A stretch of DNA of 60,198 nt from a phage: NCBI GenBank assembly GCA_018175315.1, contig GCA_018175315.1_4769.1, one strand, 5' to 3'. Below are positions 2,929-25,596 of the stretch, in pieces (the first letter of the stretch is position 1; the number at the start of each line of letters is the position of its first letter). Below the pieces are notes generated by a model that was not told where the DNA came from, made no database searches, and worked only from the letters and a program-made list of their open reading frames with translations. Both the position numbers and the translations under genes were made by a program.

Positions 2929-3423
2929 ATGTACGTCCTAATTGATACAGATAAATTTGAACTCTTGGCAAAGCATCCCAATTGGTTGACATTACACCAA
3001 CTTGGAATTATCTGTTGTCCAGAGTCAACACTGGTAACACCAGTAAACGATTTAAAAGATCTTGAAGATGTTGATCTTCAACTGCTTTATATTAACCTGA
3101 CAGAAAACTTAGGAGCTGCACCATATGAACGGGAAATCGTTGAGCGCATTTTGTCTGATTACTTTACGCAACTTCCAGAAACGATCCTGGATCACGCCCA
3201 AATCAGCGCACAAGCCGAATTCTGTGTGGAATACGATATCCAAGGCTTTTGCTCACCTCAAATTGGGCAATACGTTCCGTCAATGGATGAAGGACTTTGG
3301 AAACCTGCCCGTGTCAAATACGATGCTGAACGGGAGGGTGGTATTATTTCCGGTGCCAGGGTCATTTGTGAGCAACCCGCATTGCAAGAAGCATGGACAC
3401 CGGGCAGAGGTGCGAAGAGCTAA
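2929..3423 (+). CDS. hypothetical protein
   Basis: 164-aa ORF with AGGGGA-type RBS; no recognisable motifs. Confidence 0.5.
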   Translation: MYVLIDTDKFELLAKHPNWLTLHQLGIICCPESTLVTPVNDLKDLEDVDLQLLYINLTENLGAAPYEREIVERILSDYFTQLPETILDHAQISAQAEFCVEYDIQGFCSPQIGQYVPSMDEGLWKPARVKYDAEREGGIISGARVICEQPALQEAWTPGRGAKS

Positions 3424-3550
3424 TAAGTTCTAACCCTGATCAAAAATATTTTTAAAAATGTTTATGTAAGGGGTTGCGTGTCACAAAATCCTTTGGTACA
3501 TTTAACCCCGTTGGTAACAAACGAACCCATAATAATTCGGAGTGAAGAAA

Positions 3551-4354
3551 ATGAGTAATATTGAAGATAAGAAAGCCGCTGCTGCCGCAGCCGCTGCTGC
3601 CGCTGCAAAATCTGCTAAGCCTGCAAAGAAAGAAGCTACTGCTAACGACGCAGAAGCTAAAAAAGCCGCTGCCGCTGAAGCTGCACGCGTAGCGAAAGAG
3701 AAAAAAGAAGCAGAGAAAAAAGCTGCCGCTGAAAAGAAACAAGCTGAAATTCGTACTGAAGCGGAAAATAAATTTACCGCTCTTTCCCAGGCAGTTGAAA
3801 CCGTGAAGTTTGCTTTATCCGGTATTACCGATGAAAGCACTGTTGAACAGATTACGGAAGCAGAATCTAAGGGTTCTGAACAGCTGAAGCATTTAAAGAA
3901 TGCTCTGAAAGATCTGAAAGCAGTTGTTAAAAAATCCAAAGGTGAAGATCTGTCCGGTGCAGTAACTGCTGCTCAGAGCATGGTCGACGAACTGGATTCG
4001 TCTATCAAAGGCTTCAAAGACAAGATCCGCGCTGCTAAACAGGCTGAAAAGGCTGCTGAAAAAGCCCGCGAAAAAGCTGAACGTGAAAAAGCGAAAGAAG
4101 CGAACCGTATGCCTGAACAGAATGGTGTTCGTCGTCCGCAACCGGAAACTTCCTGCGGTCGTGCCTGGGCTCTGATGGACCAGATTAGCGCTACGCTGGG
4201 TCAGCCTGCTCCGATCTCTTATGTTCTGAATCTGGCAGGTCGTCACGGTCTGAACGAAGATACTGTTAAAACTCAGTATGCACGTTGGAAGAAGTTTAAT
4301 GGTGTGACTGGTCGCGTACCTATGCCAGTACCGGAAGCCCTGAACGGCTTGTAA
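3551..4354 (+). CDS. Ala/Lys-rich low-complexity protein (histone H1-like composition) with globular C-terminal domain
   Basis: GGAG RBS 8 nt before ATG 3551 (ORF track begins at GTG 3542); poly-Ala run and KKEAEKKAAAEKK-type repeats. Confidence 0.55.
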   Translation: MSNIEDKKAAAAAAAAAAAKSAKPAKKEATANDAEAKKAAAAEAARVAKEKKEAEKKAAAEKKQAEIRTEAENKFTALSQAVETVKFALSGITDESTVEQITEAESKGSEQLKHLKNALKDLKAVVKKSKGEDLSGAVTAAQSMVDELDSSIKGFKDKIRAAKQAEKAAEKAREKAEREKAKEANRMPEQNGVRRPQPETSCGRAWALMDQISATLGQPAPISYVLNLAGRHGLNEDTVKTQYARWKKFNGVTGRVPMPVPEALNGL

Positions 4355-4378
4355 TATCAAAACATATCACGTTATAAT
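4349..4378 (+). promoter_or_regulatory. promoter candidate TTGTAA-N18-TATAAT immediately upstream of terminator hairpin
   Basis: Perfect -10 TATAAT at 4373-4378; -35-like TTGTAA overlaps the stop codon of the upstream gene. Confidence 0.3.
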
Positions 4379-13341: not shown

Positions 13342-13626
13342 ATGAGTTTAGTAGACGATTACAATAAAGGTAAAATCGACGTGGTGGAGCTTAACCGTCA
13401 GCTTAATAAACAAAATGAAGAACGCAAACAAGGTAAATACCTTACAATGATTGTTGCGCTTATCTTCACTGTTATTGGGGGATGTGTTTACGGCTACATT
13501 AACCACACTGTTGAAGTTGGCAACGAATGTCGCGCTAAATATCCAATTCACGTTGGGGTAACTCCACAGGAAGACATTGATGCGCTTCTGGAACTTCAAG
13601 CCTTATGTCGTAAAGGGAAAGCATAA
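13342..13626 (+). CDS. hypothetical membrane protein
   Basis: GAGGAG RBS before ATG 13342; one hydrophobic segment (LTMIVALIFTVIGGCVYGYI). Confidence 0.45.
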   Translation: MSLVDDYNKGKIDVVELNRQLNKQNEERKQGKYLTMIVALIFTVIGGCVYGYINHTVEVGNECRAKYPIHVGVTPQEDIDALLELQALCRKGKA

Positions 13627-13919
13627 TGAAACGTTTATTACTCGTAACGTTGCTGATAGCGCCTGGTGTCCAAGCTGTGGATTTAAAGGATGCAGCAAAG
13701 AAACTATGCCAAGACCATCCTATTAAGTTACAATGTGAAGAGCTTGTATCCAGCATGTTAACCCATTCTTACGTGATGGGACAAACGCAGCTTGGATGTG
13801 AGTTAGGTATTATTGATGCGTGCAAAGCAGCGCGTACCAATAAACATTTTGAAAAGAACGCACGTTGGCTGGAGCAGCGCATTAGAACCCTTGATCATAG
13901 GGGTACTTTTGGGGGCTAG
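13626..13919 (+). CDS. secreted/periplasmic protein with signal peptide
   Basis: N-terminus MKRLLLVTLLIAPGVQA is signal-peptide-like; Cys-containing mature part. Confidence 0.5.
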   Translation: MKRLLLVTLLIAPGVQAVDLKDAAKKLCQDHPIKLQCEELVSSMLTHSYVMGQTQLGCELGIIDACKAARTNKHFEKNARWLEQRIRTLDHRGTFGG

Positions 13920-13951
13920 CCGCGTGTAAAACCTTAAAGGGGTACATTAGC

Positions 13952-14158
13952 ATGGCTGGTAAAGAAAAGAGCGTAGCAAGCGATTTAGCTGCGGATGTAG
14001 TAAGTCGCGAACCGTGGCAACATGGTGACAAACCAGTAGTTTACATTCACGTCTATTACTGGAATAATATGACAGCGGAGCAACAAGAAGCGTTAAAAGT
14101 TTTAGCTGACGTTATTGTTGTTCCTGATGAACCATCACCAGAAACACCGGAAGCGTAA
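13952..14158 (+). CDS. hypothetical protein
   Basis: 68-aa acidic ORF. Confidence 0.4.
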   Translation: MAGKEKSVASDLAADVVSREPWQHGDKPVVYIHVYYWNNMTAEQQEALKVLADVIVVPDEPSPETPEA

Positions 14159-14164
14159 TAAAGA

Positions 14165-14190
14165 AATACCCGCGTTCGCGCGGGTATTTA
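14165..14190 (+). terminator. stable hairpin with UUCG-type loop, weak U-tract
   Basis: AATACCCGCG-TTCG-CGCGGGTATT followed by TAAGG. Confidence 0.35.
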
Positions 14191-14194
14191 AGGA

Positions 14195-14389
14195 GTGAGC
14201 ATGGCTAAAGCTGCAAAAGGTTATCGACGGACTTTTAAATTGATAGGCGGACCGTGGGACGGACAAAAGGTGCAACTATATAGCGCTGGAACGCTGGAGT
14301 TTTCAGTGAAAAGCTTCGATCCACGTCCAGGGCGCTATGTACCAGCGGGAAATAATTATAATCTGATTTGGGAGTTTACCGATGCATGA
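14195..14389 (+). CDS. hypothetical protein
   Basis: 64-aa ORF with AAGGAG RBS. Confidence 0.45.
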   Translation: MSMAKAAKGYRRTFKLIGGPWDGQKVQLYSAGTLEFSVKSFDPRPGRYVPAGNNYNLIWEFTDA

Positions 14390-14588
14390 ATATGTGGTTA
14401 TGTATTTTGTAATTGGCGCAATTATTGCGGCAATGACTTATTTCTTTTGTTGGAATAACTATGATTATGCGCTAGCCCATAAGAAACGTTGGGAGAAGAT
14501 TGTAAGTCTTCTATGTATACTCGCTTGCTGGCCAGTCACTATTATTGCGACCGCATATGATCAATACATGTACAGGAGACGCAAATGA
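14382..14588 (+). CDS. small membrane protein
   Basis: 68 aa, two hydrophobic segments; overlaps neighbours. Confidence 0.4.
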   Translation: MHEYVVMYFVIGAIIAAMTYFFCWNNYDYALAHKKRWEKIVSLLCILACWPVTIIATAYDQYMYRRRK

Positions 14589-14866
14589 TGGAATATCTAT
14601 TAGTTGTCGTTTCGCTATTTCTGATCATTGTTGTTATAATGACCGGAGATAGTAATGAGAAGGGCTTTACAGCAATGAGCAGGGCGTTATTACGCGCCCT
14701 TGCTGTAGCACTGCTTGGGACCAGCTTTGCTATGGCGTTTGGGATTGTAGACATCCCTAGCACCTATTATGGCTTTGTTAAAGTTCAACACCAACTCACT
14801 TATGCTACCGTCGTCGGATTGGGTGCTGTAACACTTGCAATCATGTCAGCTTTTCATAAGCGTTAA
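14585..14866 (+). CDS. small membrane protein
   Basis: 93 aa, hydrophobic segments; ATGA overlap with upstream gene. Confidence 0.45.
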   Translation: MMEYLLVVVSLFLIIVVIMTGDSNEKGFTAMSRALLRALAVALLGTSFAMAFGIVDIPSTYYGFVKVQHQLTYATVVGLGAVTLAIMSAFHKR

Positions 14867-16369: not shown

Positions 16370-17077
16370 TTAGCAGCAGCCCGTCGGAGGAGTCGGAGGA
16401 GTTGGCAGTTTAAAGTTAACTAACTGCTCAACCTGATTGATCTTACAGGTAAGACCAGCCGTCTGCGCCAACTGAGAGTTTGCAAAGCGAGCTTCCTGCA
16501 ACTGGGACTTCAGGTCACAGATCAGAACTGCTTGCGCCTGTGCGTGCTGGTCACGGATCAGCGCACGGGTAGCTTCAGCTTGACGCTCGATGTTCAGGTT
16601 GGTTTCGCAGCAACACTTCTGAGCTTCTAACTGAGCCTGGAAGGAGCGGGTAATGTTAGCTGCTTCGTTGTTACACAGAGCCGCGAGCACTTGGCTTGTG
16701 CCGCTCTGGATCTGCGTGTTCAGACCAGCAAAACCCTGAACGGAAGCCAGCATGTTTTGAGTGTTCTGCTGAGTAATACCGTTATAAGTAGAAGCAGCGG
16801 AGCGCTCAACAGTCAGGTTAGTACCGTTCTGCCCCTGAATGGTCTGAAGAGTACCGTTGTTGATAGCTTGCAGAATTGCGTTGGTGTCAACAGAAGCCTG
16901 CACTTCCACCGGACCAGCGAAGTTACCGCGACCACCCCAACCACCATTGCCGCCCCAACCATTACCGATCCAGGAACCAATTAAGCCACCGATCGCGCCG
17001 CCGATACCAGCCGCACCAGCTTCACCACCGAAACCGTCGCCACCAAGATTAGTAGGTAAAAGAGTCATGTCAGACAT
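16370..17077 (-). CDS. Gly-rich protein (Gly-rich N-terminus, Q/N/T-rich middle, Cys-rich C-terminus)
   Basis: GGAG RBS before ATG at 17077 (ORF track begins at an upstream alternative start 17206); GGDGFGGEAGAAGIGGAIGG...GNGWGGNGGWGG; ends PTPPTPPTGCC. Confidence 0.55.
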   Translation of the reverse strand: MSDMTLLPTNLGGDGFGGEAGAAGIGGAIGGLIGSWIGNGWGGNGGWGGRGNFAGPVEVQASVDTNAILQAINNGTLQTIQGQNGTNLTVERSAASTYNGITQQNTQNMLASVQGFAGLNTQIQSGTSQVLAALCNNEAANITRSFQAQLEAQKCCCETNLNIERQAEATRALIRDQHAQAQAVLICDLKSQLQEARFANSQLAQTAGLTCKINQVEQLVNFKLPTPPTPPTGCC

Positions 17078-17246: not shown

Positions 17247-19013
17247 TTATGGAAGATCTGCAGTCTGTGAATTGTTTAGATTAGAAATGAGTTCTTTTAG
17301 TTTCTTATTATCTTCTTCCAAAGATTCAATCCGTTTTATAAGTTCTTGCACCACATGCATCGTATCCAAAAGCATAGGTGTTGTGTCAAGTTCCTTTTGT
17401 TCAACAATCTCTCCTGGATTACTGCCAACATATTTACGCGTCTTAACATATAAAGGCTCAACAACCTCTGCTTGCTGTGCAATCACGCCATGCCGAACTC
17501 GATTTTGTTCGTCATTGTCATAAATGAACTCTACAAATTCCAGACCTTGGATATTAGAGTATGACTTTTCAACTCCAACAGGGGCGATGCCGTGTTTTAC
17601 ACGTGAGTCAGAAGTACCATTTTTTGTATAACTAAAGTTCCCGTAATCAGTTGAACAATTTATTTGCCCATCAATGTCAAAAAAGTAACGGCAGAATTTT
17701 CCAGCGTCTCCACCGATAACTACACAGGCTTTGCCAAATGCGTTATTACCTGGAATATACATGTGATATCCAACCTTTGTTGGATATCCATTAGGTCTGA
17801 TGCCGCCGATAGAATAGCCGCGCACCAGCGTATCTGATCCACTCTCGATTGCCACCCTGTCCATTCCGTTAGTGGTCAAGTTAGGCCCGTCGGCATCCGT
17901 TATCCCGTTCCACGTACCAATAGGCGTATACATGCGGAATGGGTTGACCTTCCCTGACTGTCGAAAGTCTACCGTACCATCATCATAAAACTTGTAGGAG
18001 TGTTTAGCGGAGCCTTCAGATTCTATAACAGCCGCAGTATAAGAACCCCAGGTAGTATCAGAGTATAGACGAGCAAACCGCTTACCTGCTGGGTTGGAGT
18101 ATTCCGATACTACTTTACCACCACGAACGGAGGTATTCTGCGGAGGTGTGCTACTATCTGCATTCTTAACACTCCACGAGGTATTCGCAGCTACGAACCC
18201 ACCAGAAGCACGAATTACCCACACACCGACAAAGTTTCGTGTAAGAATCTCATCTGTTGATGCTCCGTAAATTTGACTTGAACGTGAGGCGTCAAAATTT
18301 AGCGTGTTACAACGGCCAGTAAGCGGTGTCTTACCTGCGGGGATGACATCCCCATCCCCGTTAGGAAAAAGCATATTATCAGAAAAGAATGCACCTCTAG
18401 CAGCAGAACCGAATACCTGAGCATACGTACCTCCTGAGTAACTAGGAACAGCACCAGTAATATTAGGTGCAGCAGATTCAAATAGCTGACCATTTGCATT
18501 ACTATTCCCGCCATCACCACGACCATAAAGAGCGCGTATTGATCCCTCCTGCACCCCATTCTTGTCTGGAACACGAAAAGTTGTTGTTCCATTTCCTGAT
18601 GAGTATTTACCACGCTGGAATTTATCAGCTAACCAAACTGAATCATCTATAGCCCCAACCATTTGTGCATACGCCCAGAGTTCAGGCCAATCCGCTCGAT
18701 TCAATAACTGTCCATCAGAAACGACTTCATACGGTTGAATATATGCACGACTGTCGCGTAAGTGGAAGTCACCAACACCATAATTCATGACGCCATTCAT
18801 AGTGGGTCCAACTATACCAGTATTAATCTTATTTTCTACCCAACGTTTGGTTGCAGCATCATAGTCCATAACAGGATCCCCAGCAAGCGGAGTAGATCCA
18901 ATAGGTCGCACGTTTAACCACGCTGCTGCGCGGTCCGCTAAGTCGCTCAGGTTTGCACTCTTTTTAAGAGAGTTCTTGATGTCAGCCGGAATATTTGTTA
19001 CTTGCTTAGTCAT
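17247..19013 (-). CDS. tail fibre protein with C-terminal intramolecular-chaperone-like domain
   Basis: GGGAG RBS before ATG 19013; Gly/Ser/Asn-rich beta-type composition; C-terminal SDSRVKHG resembles the S-D-x-R-x-K self-cleavage site of fibre chaperone domains, followed by coiled-coil tail. Confidence 0.65.
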   Translation of the reverse strand: MTKQVTNIPADIKNSLKKSANLSDLADRAAAWLNVRPIGSTPLAGDPVMDYDAATKRWVENKINTGIVGPTMNGVMNYGVGDFHLRDSRAYIQPYEVVSDGQLLNRADWPELWAYAQMVGAIDDSVWLADKFQRGKYSSGNGTTTFRVPDKNGVQEGSIRALYGRGDGGNSNANGQLFESAAPNITGAVPSYSGGTYAQVFGSAARGAFFSDNMLFPNGDGDVIPAGKTPLTGRCNTLNFDASRSSQIYGASTDEILTRNFVGVWVIRASGGFVAANTSWSVKNADSSTPPQNTSVRGGKVVSEYSNPAGKRFARLYSDTTWGSYTAAVIESEGSAKHSYKFYDDGTVDFRQSGKVNPFRMYTPIGTWNGITDADGPNLTTNGMDRVAIESGSDTLVRGYSIGGIRPNGYPTKVGYHMYIPGNNAFGKACVVIGGDAGKFCRYFFDIDGQINCSTDYGNFSYTKNGTSDSRVKHGIAPVGVEKSYSNIQGLEFVEFIYDNDEQNRVRHGVIAQQAEVVEPLYVKTRKYVGSNPGEIVEQKELDTTPMLLDTMHVVQELIKRIESLEEDNKKLKELISNLNNSQTADLP

Positions 19014-19015
19014 AA

Positions 19016-19291
19016 TTACGCCCACTCCCTTAAAGGTTGCTCAAGAATAACACTGTGGTTACTGTACTGGGTAAAATCAAACGAGTCATCAATAACCCTT
19101 ACGTTCACATAATACCCTTCATTTTGAATATATGTTGGTTCGTCTGATAAACTTTCAACTTCTGTAAAGGTGTATCCTATTACATCAAGCATTATTTGGT
19201 TTTGCAAAGTTTCATTGCCTTCCCAATCAATGACCACAAGAAAATCTTCAAACGCCTTCTTGTCCTTAAATTTCATAGTTAAGTCTTTCAT
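19016..19291 (-). CDS. hypothetical protein between tail-fibre genes (possible fibre assembly factor)
   Basis: 91 aa with GGAG RBS; start overlaps upstream stop. Confidence 0.45.
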   Translation of the reverse strand: MKDLTMKFKDKKAFEDFLVVIDWEGNETLQNQIMLDVIGYTFTEVESLSDEPTYIQNEGYYVNVRVIDDSFDFTQYSNHSVILEQPLREWA

Positions 19292-21417
19292 ACAGACTCC
19301 TTCAATTCACGGTCAGTCAATGCTTTATGCCATACTCGAAGATTTCTGACATGCCCGAATAAATGGCGCTGCCCCGTTGTTGTCTGACCGCCAATACGAA
19401 TGGTTGCAGAGCTTTGAATATAGGACCATGTGGCTTTCTTTTCGCTGGATATACGCCCGTTACTTACTGCACATGTCATCTGATCTTCCTTCACACGCAT
19501 CCCCATAACCATTTTTTCAAGCGATGCGTTTTCGTTTACCCGTCTGTTAGCTCCTCCAATATCGCAATAAGGAAATCCGTCGTAATCTGCTGAAGAACCG
19601 AAGCCAAGAATAATAGCCGCTCCGGTTTGATGACCGCCGGTATCAAAAACACGCGGCGCTGCATTTGGCGTTTTATACCAGTTCTTATGTACCTCACAAA
19701 GAACCGTAAAAGGAAGATTATAAAGATTATTCTTAATTGGAACTGTAACTATATCGCTTGCGCGGGTCGCCGCCGTCGCTCCTGATATAATAAAAGATGA
19801 TACACAAGGCCCATCTTCTACTTGTGGGGTGGCCAGATAAATATAGTCACCAGATACGGTTGCCCCGCTCTGCTTAGGAGAATACTGTATCTGAGAGCCT
19901 ATTTTTAACTCCCCATCAATTGCCTGAATTGTTGCCTCTGCAAAAATCCATCCGGTAGCTTCGTCCTTTCTGACTCTCGCTGTAATCCTTGAGGCAGCAC
20001 CGCCTGTCATATTAATTTCAAGCGTTTGTGTATCAATATACGCATCACCAAGAAAAGTTGTTGCGCTACCGTCATATTTATCAAACCGGATACGCAACCT
20101 TACCTGCAGTTCTGTTTTAAAACGACATGAGGTTGTCACGTATTTATTATAGCCTGAGACATCAACTGACTTTGTTGCAGCAATTGATGCCATATTAATG
20201 GCTGAGGTTTGCCCAATCAGAGAATCGTTACAGACGAACTTTCCATAGGTAAAACCAAAACTATCCTTCCCGGTTTCGGGAACATCCATATTTGACGATC
20301 GCCCCCAACTGGCAGGGTTTTCCGAATTGAGCATGTAGTTTGTTCTTTGCCCCTCAATAAGCAGGCCATCACGTTCAAATCGTGGCTCGTCAACTTCAGC
20401 AACGGTTAATACTCCTGATTTATTAATGTATGTTGCACCTGACGCCCGTTTGAAATCCACAACCTTATCGGACGGCATTTTAATAACATCATCACCTACA
20501 GTTATTTGCTTATAGCCTGGTGCAAACCCCGCTAACATATCCAGTGAGTCGTTGAAAGGAATCCATACATCAGGGAAAGGTTGAATTTCTGGAGCATTGT
20601 TAGCAGCAGATTCCGCACGGTCTGCTTCCGTCTTTGCGCGGTCTGCGTCGTTTTTAGCTGCGGTTGCGCTTGTACCTGCGTTACCTGCTTGTTGTCCCGC
20701 TTCGGTAGCGCTATTACTTGCTTGTGCAGCAGACGCGGCAGCGGCGTCTTTTAGCGCGGTAGTTTCGGACACAGCAGCGTCCTTAATTGCTTGCGTCTCG
20801 CTTATTGCGCTATTCTTAATAGTCTGTGTATCCGACTTTAATTTTTCAACATCCTTTTTGAGATTTGTTATTGTGGTTACAGCTTGGGTTGCAGTGTTAG
20901 CAGAGCCCGCAGCACTGGACTGGGCTTGTTTAGCTGCATCCGCGTTAGTTTTAGAATCATTCTTATATGTAAGCGCTTCACTTGCAGAAGAAGCAGCCGC
21001 CGCTTTACTATTACGTGCGTCGGTAGCATCTGAGTTTGCTGCGGCAGCAGAGCGTCCAGCTTGCAGAGCATATTCTTCAGAGTTAGCCACAAGTTGCTGG
21101 ACTTGTTTGATAACATCTGGAGTTAATTCTTCTGGAGCCCAGTTAATTAAATATCCGTTCAGCGAACCTTCAGGACTGTCACCATAAATAACAATCTCCC
21201 CAGCTTTATAAGGCTCAACACCTTGAGGTCCGATGATTACTTTATAACGACCAGTCTGGACAGTTACATTATACGCACCGGATCCGTCAGTGCGGAATAT
21301 AGCCTCACTACCATTAAGAACGGTAATTGTGTTCCCTTTAGCAATAAGAGCAACTGTAGCGTTGATGATTGGTTTATTTAAACCATCCATCAGAATACCA
21401 TGTAGACGAGTTGCCAT
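19288..21417 (-). CDS. tail fibre / receptor-binding protein with C-terminal lectin (LamG)-like domain
   Basis: AGAGGT RBS before ATG 21417; beta-rich N-terminal domain, Ala/Ser-rich coiled middle, C-terminal region lectin-like by composition. Confidence 0.6.
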   Translation of the reverse strand: MATRLHGILMDGLNKPIINATVALIAKGNTITVLNGSEAIFRTDGSGAYNVTVQTGRYKVIIGPQGVEPYKAGEIVIYGDSPEGSLNGYLINWAPEELTPDVIKQVQQLVANSEEYALQAGRSAAAANSDATDARNSKAAAASSASEALTYKNDSKTNADAAKQAQSSAAGSANTATQAVTTITNLKKDVEKLKSDTQTIKNSAISETQAIKDAAVSETTALKDAAAASAAQASNSATEAGQQAGNAGTSATAAKNDADRAKTEADRAESAANNAPEIQPFPDVWIPFNDSLDMLAGFAPGYKQITVGDDVIKMPSDKVVDFKRASGATYINKSGVLTVAEVDEPRFERDGLLIEGQRTNYMLNSENPASWGRSSNMDVPETGKDSFGFTYGKFVCNDSLIGQTSAINMASIAATKSVDVSGYNKYVTTSCRFKTELQVRLRIRFDKYDGSATTFLGDAYIDTQTLEINMTGGAASRITARVRKDEATGWIFAEATIQAIDGELKIGSQIQYSPKQSGATVSGDYIYLATPQVEDGPCVSSFIISGATAATRASDIVTVPIKNNLYNLPFTVLCEVHKNWYKTPNAAPRVFDTGGHQTGAAIILGFGSSADYDGFPYCDIGGANRRVNENASLEKMVMGMRVKEDQMTCAVSNGRISSEKKATWSYIQSSATIRIGGQTTTGQRHLFGHVRNLRVWHKALTDRELKESV

Positions 21418-21541
21418 TTTTACCTCTTGTTTCGCAGAGTTGATCAATTAATGGATGCACTATGGCATATAAATATGGTAAATTAAATTAGAATATAAAA
21501 CAATATTGTCTATCATCTTTAACCACATTGTTGGAGTAATT

Positions 21542-22507
21542 ATGCCAGAGGGTATTTATATAAACTACAATGACGGTAGACCTGCAATGCAAATAACATC
21601 AGGTTTACGGGCCTTGTCCTTTTGCGCTAAATTTGATCAGCGCTGTCAATCCGATCAAACGTTAGTGATTAATACCCCTCTCACTAACGGGTCTGAGATT
21701 TTTGTAATTCCAACAAGGCCAGTTGAAATTATTGAAGTTTACGATCAAGGTTTAGTTGTCGCATCACCTTTCTATATATCCTCTATTTCCAGGAACGGTA
21801 ATTCTGGAGTTGTCTTAAGGGGTGGTAATCCTTTTGGGTATACCGGAAAACTACCGCAATGGGCGGGTTCAATTATGGAGGTATTACCTGCCGCCAATTA
21901 TAATACAGGTCTATATGTATCTAACTCTACGGATTTTACAGCAATCTCTAATAATGCAAAGCTAATGACTTGTCAATACGCTGGTACGGTTACAGTCAAT
22001 GGCAGTCTGCAACTACCTGTATCCGGTATCCCGTTTGCAAGATGGAGCGATCCAAACGTTTCTGTTGGCTTTGATGGTTCTAACATTATAGTCCGCAACA
22101 TTGCGTATACGGGTCGAGACGACGTTGCTGGTAGCGTTACAATGGAGCTGGTAATCTTTAATAATACTCCACCGTCACCTGGCGACGGTATTACAATGAC
22201 AAACAATATTGGGCAAGTCACATTTTCTACAGTGAGAAAACCATTCTTATTCGACAGGACTTTAATTTTATCGGGAAGTAACCAAGACATAGGTAACAGG
22301 TTAATTCAGCTTGCTTTTTACGGTATGCGCAACGTCTATAATGGCGGGTATGACCATGTTCGTTATAATGGCGTTTATATGTATAATAATCAGGTAAGAG
22401 CTGAAAGAAATAAAGTGATTGGTAACTTCTATTCCCCTTCTTTAAGACCACCAGAAAGAAATATTATCATCCCTACTCCAGCTATCGCTATACCAAATAT
22501 GTATTAA
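21542..22507 (+). CDS. hypothetical protein encoded antisense to the tail module
   Basis: GGAG RBS 5 nt before ATG 21542; 321 aa rich in N/G/S/T/Y; AT-rich upstream region and hairpin terminator downstream; no large competing ORF on the minus strand. Confidence 0.55.
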   Translation: MPEGIYINYNDGRPAMQITSGLRALSFCAKFDQRCQSDQTLVINTPLTNGSEIFVIPTRPVEIIEVYDQGLVVASPFYISSISRNGNSGVVLRGGNPFGYTGKLPQWAGSIMEVLPAANYNTGLYVSNSTDFTAISNNAKLMTCQYAGTVTVNGSLQLPVSGIPFARWSDPNVSVGFDGSNIIVRNIAYTGRDDVAGSVTMELVIFNNTPPSPGDGITMTNNIGQVTFSTVRKPFLFDRTLILSGSNQDIGNRLIQLAFYGMRNVYNGGYDHVRYNGVYMYNNQVRAERNKVIGNFYSPSLRPPERNIIIPTPAIAIPNMY

Positions 22508-22508
22508 T

Positions 22509-22530
22509 AAACGGGGCATGTGCCCCGTTT
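22509..22530. terminator. bidirectional hairpin terminator
   Basis: Palindrome AAACGGGGCA-TG-TGCCCCGTTT between convergent genes. Confidence 0.5.
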
Positions 22531-22540
22531 AAATATTTCA

Positions 22541-25180
22541 TTACCATCGTCCCACTATGACAACACCACCACCTGATAGCGGAACACGAATACCGTTACT
22601 ATCAATTGTAATACCTCCATTTCCATTGAAACCAAATTGACCAGCGTTAGCAACAACGGTCCCTCTGACGGTCACGTTATTAAATACGCAATAACCGTCT
22701 TTTGTGATTGCCCAACCTTGATCGTTACCATTCCAGTTATTGGACTGGATAACATTACCAATCTTAGCGTTAGTAATCGATCCGTTTTCAATAAACGCTT
22801 CTCGCAAGAAACTTTGACCGTTTTTAATAGCGAATGCAAGCTGTGCTGCTCCTGCTACAGGATTATAAATAGCAAAGTTATCCGCGCTCACCATAAAGTA
22901 AGACTGGAATTGTCCTCCGCTACCTTCAATACCTAACTGCATACCTGCAACATATTTGTTACCATTATTGTCTATTTGAACCTTTTGTCCCCATTGAGCA
23001 GAAAGTTTACCATTAAGATCTGCTAGTGCTTGCGATTGCTCTTGCACGGTAACAACAACATCACCCACACTACTCTGAACCGATTCAATTTTTGTAGCTT
23101 GTCCTTCAACTACTTTGGACAATTCCGTTACACCGTCATCAACCTTTTGCACAGTCTCCATGAGGTTTTTGAAAGTTTCAGTTTCTTGAAACTCTTTATC
23201 CATAATTTCTATGATCTGTGCAGTTTCTGCCCATACACGAGCTTCAACTTCCACAAACGCGGACGACCCAAAGGCATTGATAGTTCTTACATACCAGTAA
23301 TAAGTGTGGTCATTGAGTAAGTTATTTTTCTGCCATATAGTTCCCATACCTTCACGGGTCGCATCGCGCTCAACAACATCTGTATTAACAGACGGCAGTT
23401 TTGTTTCACCAGACGTCCAGAAATCAAATTGTGTGCTAACACTAGTGAGCTCTGCAATCTTTGGTATAAGAGTTAAAGAAAAATAACCGTTCTGTATTTC
23501 GACAGATGAAGGCGGCGGTGGGGCTTGAATATTAAACTCCAGATAAGCTTCCGGTGATATTGCGCCACTGTGCGATACAGCTTGAACGTGCGCAGTATAT
23601 GCCCCACGCAGCAACCCAGTAACACGAACGCTTTGGCCAGGGACTTGTGCGGTCCAAATAGTAACGCCTCCCTGTCGCACAGCTACGCGGTTGTATGCAA
23701 CTTGCCCCATGTTGGTCCAGGATAATACCCCCTGTACCACATCGCTAATCTGCAATATCTGGTATTGGAGATTTTGAGGTTGAGCAACACCACCACTTGG
23801 CAAGTCTACAAGATCCGGTCGGTCCATAGGCTTACCGATCGCATCGTCCCACATTTCCAGGAAATCTTGACGTAGTGTAAGGTTAACACCACCTTTAGGG
23901 TTAAAAGACCATTTAGTAACGCGCATTTCAACATTCTTCATGCCAATCTGCGTAATGGTGACTTTTACATACATTCCTGGACGAAATTTATAACCCTTCA
24001 TGTTACAAGGAATTTCAATTGTGCGGCCAACACGTTTACGACGTAGAATAATATTAGACAAACGTTGGGCTTGATATTCGCTTGTTACAAATCGGAAATC
24101 CATGTCTTGCGTTATTTCACCGCCGTCCTTTTCCACCCATTCCTTAACCACAACTGGAGGAAAGTCCGCTTCAACATAGTTTTGCTTTGGATCAATAAAT
24201 GTCCCTGTGATGGTGTTGGTGCGCTCCTTATAAGAAGTTTCTGGAACAATTTTAATATCCCCAGCAATACAACTTTCGTCCAGCGTCATTGTTGCTGGAC
24301 CGTAATATGCGCCAACCAGAAGACCGTGTTTACCCGCTACATACGTTAGCTCGCCGCCACAAGCTTGCAACATAGCATCCAGAATTTTGGATGGGGCTTC
24401 ATCTACTTCAAATTCACCGTTGATTTTATAACGGCGCTCTGTAGAACCATCAGCGTTATTGACGTATTCATCACAGATGTTAGCCGCTTCTTTGAATTGG
24501 TCCCAGTTAATATCTTCATCTTTGCGCTTTAAATACGTGCGGAAGTAATCAAGTATCACCAACGCTGCATTATCGCTGAATATGGTATAACCAGAACGAG
24601 GATCATATACACGGCGACCTCTTTTAAGAAGCTTAATGTTTGGCAAACCAGACGGGAATTTTTCCGCATTAAATTTAAAGCTAATACGAAGCCATGCAAT
24701 CCCTTTCCCGATCATATCCTCTTTCCAGGAAGGGCAATTGCTTAACATGAATGGATCTACAGTCTGACGGTCGTTATGGAATTCCCAAGTGACATACTGT
24801 TCGAAAGTCTGTACAAGGTCATCCCCAAGCCAAATATCACCAATTCCCTCCAATGGATGTGAAGCTACAACAAGAGCCATATGCAGGAGTTCGTCTTCGT
24901 CCTGATCTCCAGGCTGCTCCTCGGCAAACGTCATAACACCGGAAGCAACCGTTGTACCATACACTACTGTTCGAGATGCTGCGGCTGCTCGTAAAACCTG
25001 TTTACGCTCTTGTTGACCTTTATAAGCATTAAAGTTCATATTAGGTGTCTTAGTTAAAAGAGCACCCGCCGCAGTTGCAGCCATACCAATAGCCAAAGCT
25101 ACGCCAGTAGCAATCCACCCCGCCGCAGCGGCAGCGGAAGCACCTAAAGCTATTGCTGCTCCAATTATTGCTGGTGGCAT
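22541..25180 (-). CDS. lambda J-like tail tip / central fibre protein (host specificity)
   Basis: GGAGGG RBS before ATG 25180; FN3-like segment YYWYVRTINAFGSSAFVEV resembles lambda J YYFYIRSVNTVGKSAFVEA; first about 47 aa are an Ala/Gly-rich hydrophobic segment. Confidence 0.7.
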   Translation of the reverse strand: MPPAIIGAAIALGASAAAAAGWIATGVALAIGMAATAAGALLTKTPNMNFNAYKGQQERKQVLRAAAASRTVVYGTTVASGVMTFAEEQPGDQDEDELLHMALVVASHPLEGIGDIWLGDDLVQTFEQYVTWEFHNDRQTVDPFMLSNCPSWKEDMIGKGIAWLRISFKFNAEKFPSGLPNIKLLKRGRRVYDPRSGYTIFSDNAALVILDYFRTYLKRKDEDINWDQFKEAANICDEYVNNADGSTERRYKINGEFEVDEAPSKILDAMLQACGGELTYVAGKHGLLVGAYYGPATMTLDESCIAGDIKIVPETSYKERTNTITGTFIDPKQNYVEADFPPVVVKEWVEKDGGEITQDMDFRFVTSEYQAQRLSNIILRRKRVGRTIEIPCNMKGYKFRPGMYVKVTITQIGMKNVEMRVTKWSFNPKGGVNLTLRQDFLEMWDDAIGKPMDRPDLVDLPSGGVAQPQNLQYQILQISDVVQGVLSWTNMGQVAYNRVAVRQGGVTIWTAQVPGQSVRVTGLLRGAYTAHVQAVSHSGAISPEAYLEFNIQAPPPPSSVEIQNGYFSLTLIPKIAELTSVSTQFDFWTSGETKLPSVNTDVVERDATREGMGTIWQKNNLLNDHTYYWYVRTINAFGSSAFVEVEARVWAETAQIIEIMDKEFQETETFKNLMETVQKVDDGVTELSKVVEGQATKIESVQSSVGDVVVTVQEQSQALADLNGKLSAQWGQKVQIDNNGNKYVAGMQLGIEGSGGQFQSYFMVSADNFAIYNPVAGAAQLAFAIKNGQSFLREAFIENGSITNAKIGNVIQSNNWNGNDQGWAITKDGYCVFNNVTVRGTVVANAGQFGFNGNGGITIDSNGIRVPLSGGGVVIVGRW

Positions 25181-25596
25181 TAGACCCTCCAAATATCCGT
25201 GATTTTGATCTTATTAAGCGGGAATGTTTCCACACCGTTCGGGCCCATAGCCCATACATATCCCGTCCATAATATGCCAGCGGTTAAGCCCAATGCTCCC
25301 TCAAATGTAACCACATCTCCTCTTTGCGCAAAGTTCTTATCAACGCGCTCACTTAGGTAAGCATCCAGCAAGGTTGGAAGGTAAGCTGTTCCAACCTTTT
25401 CAATTGAGAACCGTTTGCTTCCAAGCTCTGTGCTGTATTTACCCGCTATCTGATTATAAATATTTGTGTTGTATTGTGCATCAACACATTTAGCAGCAAA
25501 CGTACAGCAATCGTTTTCACCCCAAGAAAAAGGAGTCGATGACAACTCCTTTACTGTGGTTAATAAACGTGTCTGCCATCCTGGCATTTTACTCAT
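25180..25596 (-). CDS. minor tail / tail assembly protein (lambda K/I position)
   Basis: Start chosen at ATG 25596 overlapping upstream stop (ORF track's longer ORF overlaps previous gene by 176 nt); contains ENDCCTF Cys motif. Confidence 0.4.
   Translation of the reverse strand: MSKMPGWQTRLLTTVKELSSTPFSWGENDCCTFAAKCVDAQYNTNIYNQIAGKYSTELGSKRFSIEKVGTAYLPTLLDAYLSERVDKNFAQRGDVVTFEGALGLTAGILWTGYVWAMGPNGVETFPLNKIKITDIWRV

Follow-up and report, generated by a model that had tools for sequence, protein, structure and literature searches.

Receptor specificity in the small siphoviruses of the BASEL collection has been attributed to a "bona fide RBP locus" located directly downstream of gpJ (PMC8594841; Maffei et al. 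2021). Four unrelated protein families encoded downstream of gpJ track the receptors FhuA, BtuB, LptD and YncD, respectively, and the LptD-specific family was defined by >30% identity, >99% coverage and this location (preprint 10.64898/2026.04.02.716166). The DUF6453-type family correlates with LptD use across the backbones of Drexlerviridae, Dhillonvirus and Queuovirinae (PMC8594841; 10.64898/2026.04.02.716166). Infection by Bas25, Bas19, Bas20, Bas18, Bas14, Bas01 and Bas02 is blocked by small lptD deletions, and for Bas25, which is fully blocked by two lptD loop mutants, the block was complemented (PMC8594841). The protein of phage Oekolampad (Bas18) was seen by cryo-EM to lie deep in the extracellular face of the open LptDE complex (Dunbar et al. 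2025, bioRxiv 10.1101/2025.07.07.663478), with an interface to LptD of about 1700 square angstroms and 20 hydrogen bonds that involves loops EL3-5 and EL11; neither binding nor infection by this phage occurs with LptD carrying the single substitution Y671N or D352Y (bioRxiv 10.1101/2025.07.07.663478). LptDE binding and a dependence of infection on LptD loops EL4, EL5 and EL11 are thus documented for homologues, structurally and biochemically for the Oekolampad protein and genetically, at the level of the phage, for VogelGryff (Bas25).

Two further systems are relevant for comparison. In the Drexlerviridae phage Rtp, the gene for the DUF6453 protein Rtp44 faces rtp43, the J homologue, in convergent orientation and is the second gene of an Rtp45-Rtp44 operon in which Rtp45 is a structurally characterised exclusion factor for LptD. 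In T5, pb5 (oad) is likewise a monomeric, stand-alone receptor-binding protein, located at the tip of the central fibre of a siphophage, and binds an outer-membrane beta-barrel, although its receptor is FhuA and not LptD. When bound to their receptors, both pb5 and the Oekolampad protein show poor order in the part nearest the tail.

The DNA analysed here (the window, 60,198 nucleotides in length) represents a whole genome of the Seuratvirus type (Queuovirinae) and shares about 93-96% identity with its deposited relatives. Its plus strand carries, at positions 21542-22507, a gene whose product is, with a probability that we put at roughly 0.93, the terminal LptD-specific receptor-binding protein of this siphophage, the binding property being transferred from homologues. 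The assignment draws on the open reading frame itself, the match to DUF6453, the match to the solved Oekolampad chain and the dN/dS ratio. The reading frame starts with ATG at 21542, ends with TAA at 22505-22507 and encodes 321 residues beginning with MPEGIYINYNDGRP. A GGAG ribosome-binding site at 21533-21536 on the same strand, 5 nt before the ATG, is kept in four Queuovirinae loci. The preliminary description had placed a plus-strand gene of this length between two minus-strand tail genes, preceded by a GGAG site and by an AT-rich region and followed by a palindromic bidirectional terminator, and in all these respects its reading and its coordinates agree with ours.

The gene is real and not a chance reading frame, as indicated by a Pfam E value of 1e-120 and a dN/dS ratio of 0.063 for the plus frame, the latter calculated against the 79%-identical allele of phage FritzHoffmann. 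Differences from that allele are distributed over codon positions 1, 2 and 3 as 41, 21 and 139, respectively, i.e., with an excess at the third position, and strong purifying selection acts on the plus frame of 21542-22507. Two minus-strand open reading frames within the gene, at 21973-22290 and 22227-22451 (105 and 74 aa), were considered as genes and rejected, as homologues have 2-5 internal stops in them. A conserved minus-strand frame overlooked in this region had been named beforehand as the finding that would speak against the plus-strand gene; since both antisense frames are broken by stops in homologues, that objection is removed.

The product was identified by Pfam as DUF6453 (PF20051), with 402.6 bits against a cut-off of 25 over residues 4-296 of 321, and it matched phrog_1265 over residues 1-321 (E=9e-113). 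A search of solved structures returned chain C of PDB entry 9rpt (also 9rpw and 9rqi) over residues 2-321 with E=2e-132. This chain is the Oekolampad receptor-binding protein, which has the same length and is 63.1% identical from end to end without a gap. By far the closest relative is bas25_0021 of VogelGryff, with 99.4% protein identity; the only differences, N8D and Q17E, are both located in the tail-proximal segment, and the DNA of the region is also 99.4% identical to that of Escherichia phage VogelGryff (Bas25). The identities to the proteins of Bas20, Bas19, a Dhillonvirus, Rtp (Rtp44) and phage A121 are 86%, 66%, 60%, 36% and 77.6%, respectively. In the terms of the published family definition, the alleles of Bas25 (99.4%), Bas20 (86%), Bas19 (66%) and Bas18 (9rpt_C, 63%) align with the window protein end to end and well above 30% identity, and the gene adjoins a convergent J-like gene, i.e., it lies downstream of gpJ. 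DUF6453 was matched by every homologue scanned against Pfam (Bas20, SA126VB and Rtp44, the last with 379 bits), and the family was found by tblastn in 423 phage records. The 63% ungapped identity to the solved chain suggests an Oekolampad-like fold; a single-sequence AlphaFold2 model of the 321-residue protein reached a pLDDT of 31.6 and a pTM of 0.23, too low for the model to be usable. No sequence relationship to pb5 of T5 was detected, Pfam giving DUF6453 only. The kind of gene is already known and structurally characterised, and the window adds another, near-identical allele.

In composition, the product was described beforehand as rich in Asn, Gly, Ser, Thr and Tyr and as lacking an obvious signal peptide, both of which were borne out. 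These five residues make up 38.6% of the 321-aa protein, in which no signal peptide, lipobox or transmembrane segment was found; the highest 19-residue Kyte-Doolittle mean was 1.0, the usual threshold for a transmembrane segment being about 1.6. The public labels of the family are of a different kind. The PHROG is annotated as "membrane protein" in the category "moron, auxiliary metabolic gene and host takeover", RefSeq has "membrane protein", GenBank has "hypothetical protein" (including bas25_0021), and one record has "exonuclease"; a literature search for "DUF6453" retrieved only a genome-annotation table. In view of the solved receptor complex and of the lack of a transmembrane segment, these labels look wrong or outdated.

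Compared with VogelGryff, the window shares the genus, the slot between J and the lateral fibre, the antisense orientation and the length of 321 aa, and differs in the distal lateral-fibre genes; the genome as a whole is no closer than about 93-96% to any deposited Seuratvirus. Compared with Oekolampad, it shares the Pfam family, the protein length, an ungapped alignment at 63% identity and a gene that is convergent with J, whereas Oekolampad is a Dhillonvirus with an exclusion lipoprotein, bas18_0026, and its protein differs in the loop 296-306. Within that loop, Gln299 of Oekolampad, which hydrogen-bonds LptD Ser350 and is the only phage-side contact named in the text of the structural report (bioRxiv 10.1101/2025.07.07.663478), is replaced by Pro299 in the window protein. 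Owing to this replacement and to the differing surrounding residues, the detailed interface with LptD may differ.

The distribution of conserved positions along the protein was analysed within the context of the solved complex. In the Oekolampad cryo-EM map, residues 1-25, 113-142 and 206-234 are missing, and the absent part is described as the tail-proximal one (bioRxiv 10.1101/2025.07.07.663478). In an alignment of six alleles, 35 of the 84 positions in these segments were invariant, versus 42 of the 237 positions elsewhere (Fisher p=2e-5). The most conserved segment was formed by codons 1-25 (21542-21616, plus strand), with 52% of positions invariant among the six alleles, and represents a putative J-docking surface. 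The C-terminal third, conversely, which includes the loop with position 299, was the most variable (15% invariant), and its identity to Oekolampad is no more than about 50%. The pattern is consistent with a docking face that is conserved and a receptor face that varies, the docking role being proposed from conservation only.

The J-like tail-tip protein (879 aa; Phage_Tail_Tip, Ig_J_second and phrog_31) is encoded on the minus strand at 22541-25180 and has no C-terminal receptor-binding extension. Its start at 25180 was taken from the VogelGryff annotation, the mechanically called reading frame beginning at 25192. The J-like protein presumably carries the receptor-binding protein at its tip. 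Its last 30 codons (22544-22633, minus strand), ending in GGGVVIVGRW, are a candidate attachment site, as an end motif, GG(x)V(x)VG(R/T)(W/F), was recognised by eye as common to the J proteins paired with DUF6453 proteins: the corresponding ends are GGRVVVGRW in A121, GGGRVKVGTW in Lzu_P1 and NGGRVVVGTF in Rtp. The two genes also appear to be inherited together. The region 21225-25200, which comprises the N-terminus of the fibre, the receptor-binding protein and J, is mostly 98-100% identical to VogelGryff. Beyond 26.4 kb, in the tape-measure gene, the identity is about 90-96%, and in the remainder of the lateral fibre it is 65-95% and lower.

The slot is occupied differently in KurtStettler (MZ501091, 1656-4882 of the piece analysed), a LamB-dependent Seuratvirus. 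Its J protein, of 987 aa, is 108 aa longer than that of the window; the two align collinearly, with 79% identity, as far as about residue 849, where an extension of ~134 aa begins in KurtStettler. The antisense slot of this phage contains only a gene for a 77-aa lipoprotein, bas22_0021 (MKRSIAILTLTFLLSAC...), which is plausibly a LamB-type exclusion factor. This swap marks the slot as an exchangeable host-recognition cassette, as published, and the gene of the window is predicted to be the stand-alone LptD-specific protein of such a cassette downstream of gpJ. In the Klebsiella phage KA1-2, a DUF6453 gene (1501-2457 of the piece analysed) follows the J-like gene after 1 nt and shares its strand, so that the antisense arrangement belongs to particular lineages and does not characterise the family as a whole.

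Between the receptor-binding gene (plus strand) and the divergent lateral fibre gene (minus strand) lies an AT-rich spacer of 124 nt (21418-21541), with 27-30% GC versus about 40-45% in the surrounding sequence. Within it, the block 21464-21541 was almost invariant between Nonagvirus and Seuratvirus in a four-phage alignment. A scan of the spacer for sigma-70-like promoters with at least 9 of 12 matches found none, and inspection by eye found only TAGAAT at 21489-21494, without a credible -35 element. At the other end of the gene, 34 nt separate its stop codon from that of the convergent J-like gene, and the sole terminator-like site between the two is a palindrome at 22509-22530, AAACGGGGCATGTGCCCCGTTT, placed by the terminator scan at 22508-22531. 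It forms a bidirectional hairpin resembling an intrinsic terminator, with a folding energy of -17.8 kcal/mol on one strand and -17.2 kcal/mol on the other (z -4.1 and -3.7, respectively). In six homologous loci from three phage groups a hairpin occurs at the equivalent spot with differing stem sequences, and the retention of its position despite these differences argues that it is functional. As the hairpin should halt J transcripts, the spacer would have to serve the lateral fibre operon as well, and it presumably contains putative back-to-back promoters. Bounded by the conserved spacer and by the bidirectional hairpin, the gene is predicted to form its own transcription unit.

The gene on the far side of the spacer (19288-21417, minus strand) encodes a lateral tail fibre of 709 aa, identified by phage_tail_N, phrog_1419 and the VogelGryff annotation. 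Its start was placed at ATG 21417 behind a GAGG site, as in VogelGryff, and not at TTG 21447. The lateral tail fibre is a separate host-range determinant, and the distal lateral-fibre genes form a second, independent host-range cassette. These distal genes are mosaic (17247-19025, minus strand, and 18500-20600), with identities to VogelGryff of 27-70%, and one of them encodes a fibre protein of 592 aa that bears a Peptidase_S74 chaperone domain and has no equivalent in VogelGryff at that position. Just downstream of the tail fibre genes, at 16370-17077 on the minus strand, a 235-aa protein of phrog_9288 (unknown function) is encoded, which is rich in Gly over a long part of its N-terminal region (GGDGFGGEAGAAGIGG...GGWGGRG) and has the C-terminus PTPPTPPTGCC.

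A weak partial match to the receptor-binding protein was also observed beyond the siphophages. In the Gordonclarkvirinae podovirus KBNP1711, a 344-aa hypothetical protein that adjoins the tail fibre genes (3330-4364 of the piece) matched residues 52-259 with about 26% identity. Similar weak matches occur in about ten further podoviruses of 76-79 kb and may represent a distant DUF6453-like domain.

In several related phages the receptor-binding gene is accompanied by an exclusion-type lipoprotein gene. A gene for a lipoprotein of 74-76 aa immediately precedes the receptor-binding gene in Rtp, in the Dhillonvirus Lzu_P1, where it is upstream in the same operon, and in A121 (Drexlerviridae). In A121 (MG065670, an unannotated record labelled "Campylobacter phage") it was observed as a 75-aa reading frame at 1272-1499 of the piece, upstream of the 77.6%-identical protein, and the closest allele from outside the Queuovirinae thus keeps the exclusion gene that the Queuovirinae lack. 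In the window, by contrast with these two-gene cassettes of receptor-binding protein and exclusion factor, no co-oriented lipoprotein gene precedes the receptor-binding gene: the 124-nt spacer contains no open reading frame and has no room for a lipoprotein gene, and no homologue of Rtp45 or of the Dhillonvirus lipoprotein was found in the whole window (best tblastn E about 3). The window therefore differs from Rtp, with its 36%-identical Rtp44, in having no Rtp45, and from T5 in that no counterpart of the exclusion lipoprotein Llp was found. A lipoprotein gene is also absent from the locus in Bas19, Bas20, Bas25 and SA126VB.

Elsewhere in the window, the DNA polymerase gene is followed by a series of small genes for envelope-targeted products (13342-14866, plus strand), all of them in PHROGs of unknown function. 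One product, of 94 aa, has a single hydrophobic segment that ends in IGGC, another, of 97 aa, has a signal peptide that looks cleavable (MKRLLLVTLLIAPGVQA), and two more, of 68 and 93 aa, are apparently membrane-spanning, judging from their hydrophobic stretches. The reading frames 13342-13626 and 13626-13919, which a scan for lipoboxes and signal peptides had singled out, were considered as LptD exclusion factors and rejected: they are core Seuratvirus genes, with 96-99% conservation among about 34 members of the genus, KurtStettler with its LamB dependence included, and hence do not track receptor type. Queuovirinae with a solo gene for the LptD-binding protein may skip exclusion at the level of the receptor or use an unrelated factor encoded elsewhere, and may also engage LptD somewhat differently from the solved Oekolampad complex, a suggestion that we consider tentative and rather doubtful.

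The preliminary description had left a choice between a receptor-binding protein, an exclusion factor and a moron. The first of these is favoured by the 99.4% identity to the VogelGryff protein and the 63% identity to the LptDE-bound protein of Oekolampad. A non-structural membrane protein or moron, or an exclusion factor that an infected cell would produce so that the receptor is blocked, would agree with the labels of phrog_1265 and RefSeq and with the fact that the gene occupies the slot of exclusion lipoproteins in related phages. The protein, however, contains neither a signal peptide nor a lipobox nor any hydrophobic segment, the exclusion factors known from the locus are unrelated lipoproteins of 74-77 aa, and in the solved complex the homologue is bound to LptDE from outside the cell, as expected of a virion protein. 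With its 321 residues and no lipobox signal peptide, the product also does not resemble Llp, Cor or Rtp45, which have such a signal and about 60-80 aa. A role of this sort is thus highly improbable. Hardly more credible is a purely structural role at the tail tip, as an adaptor or in assembly, with receptor specificity residing in J or in the lateral fibres. The most conserved parts of the protein are indeed the presumed tail-facing segments, and genetics alone cannot separate two genes that are inherited together, but the homologue contacts its receptor directly through the extensive hydrogen-bonded interface (about 1700 square angstroms, 20 hydrogen bonds), the family follows LptD use across three phage backbones (Drexlerviridae, Dhillonvirus and Queuovirinae), and the J protein of the window is without the C-terminal domain that is carried by phages of the LamB and TolC types.

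A receptor-binding protein directed through its diverged distal loops to a receptor other than LptD, or to an additional one, is also very unlikely. The C-terminal third with its identity of only about 50% to Oekolampad, the change from Gln299 to Pro and the requirement of Bas01 for both NupG and LptD (10.64898/2026.04.02.716166) could be taken in its favour. Against this stand the phenotype of VogelGryff, whose protein is only two residues apart (N8D and Q17E) and which is fully blocked by two lptD loop mutants and complemented, and the fact that the dual requirement of Bas01 maps to a J domain and not to the DUF6453-type protein (10.64898/2026.04.02.716166). The LptD dependence of VogelGryff and the Oekolampad-LptDE structure likewise support the earlier proposal that the gene determines host range.

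As an LptD-specific receptor-binding protein, the product, which lacks a signal peptide, would be assembled into the virion at the extreme end of the tail, probably held by non-covalent contacts to the J-like protein at its short C-terminus. Contact with J would be made by the conserved tail-proximal residues 1-25, 113-142 and 206-234, while the more variable distal part would enter the extracellular mouth of the LptD barrel in the LptDE lipopolysaccharide translocon. There it would touch loops EL3-5 and EL11 of LptD, leading to irreversible adsorption and ejection of the DNA. At the level of the genome, the gene would fill an exchangeable slot just downstream of gpJ as a small separate transcription unit, and would move with J as one block. 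The presence of this gene, and not a C-terminal extension of J or another receptor-binding family, would set LptD as the terminal receptor.

The absence of a cognate exclusion lipoprotein from the Queuovirinae is a small point beyond the biology already published. The value of the finding for annotation is that a gene recorded as "hypothetical", "membrane protein" or DUF6453 can be named as that of a probable LptD-specific receptor-binding protein, so that the terminal receptor of the phage becomes predictable as LptD from sequence alone. LptD is both essential and surface-exposed, and phages that use it are therefore of interest for therapy and for the control of contamination.
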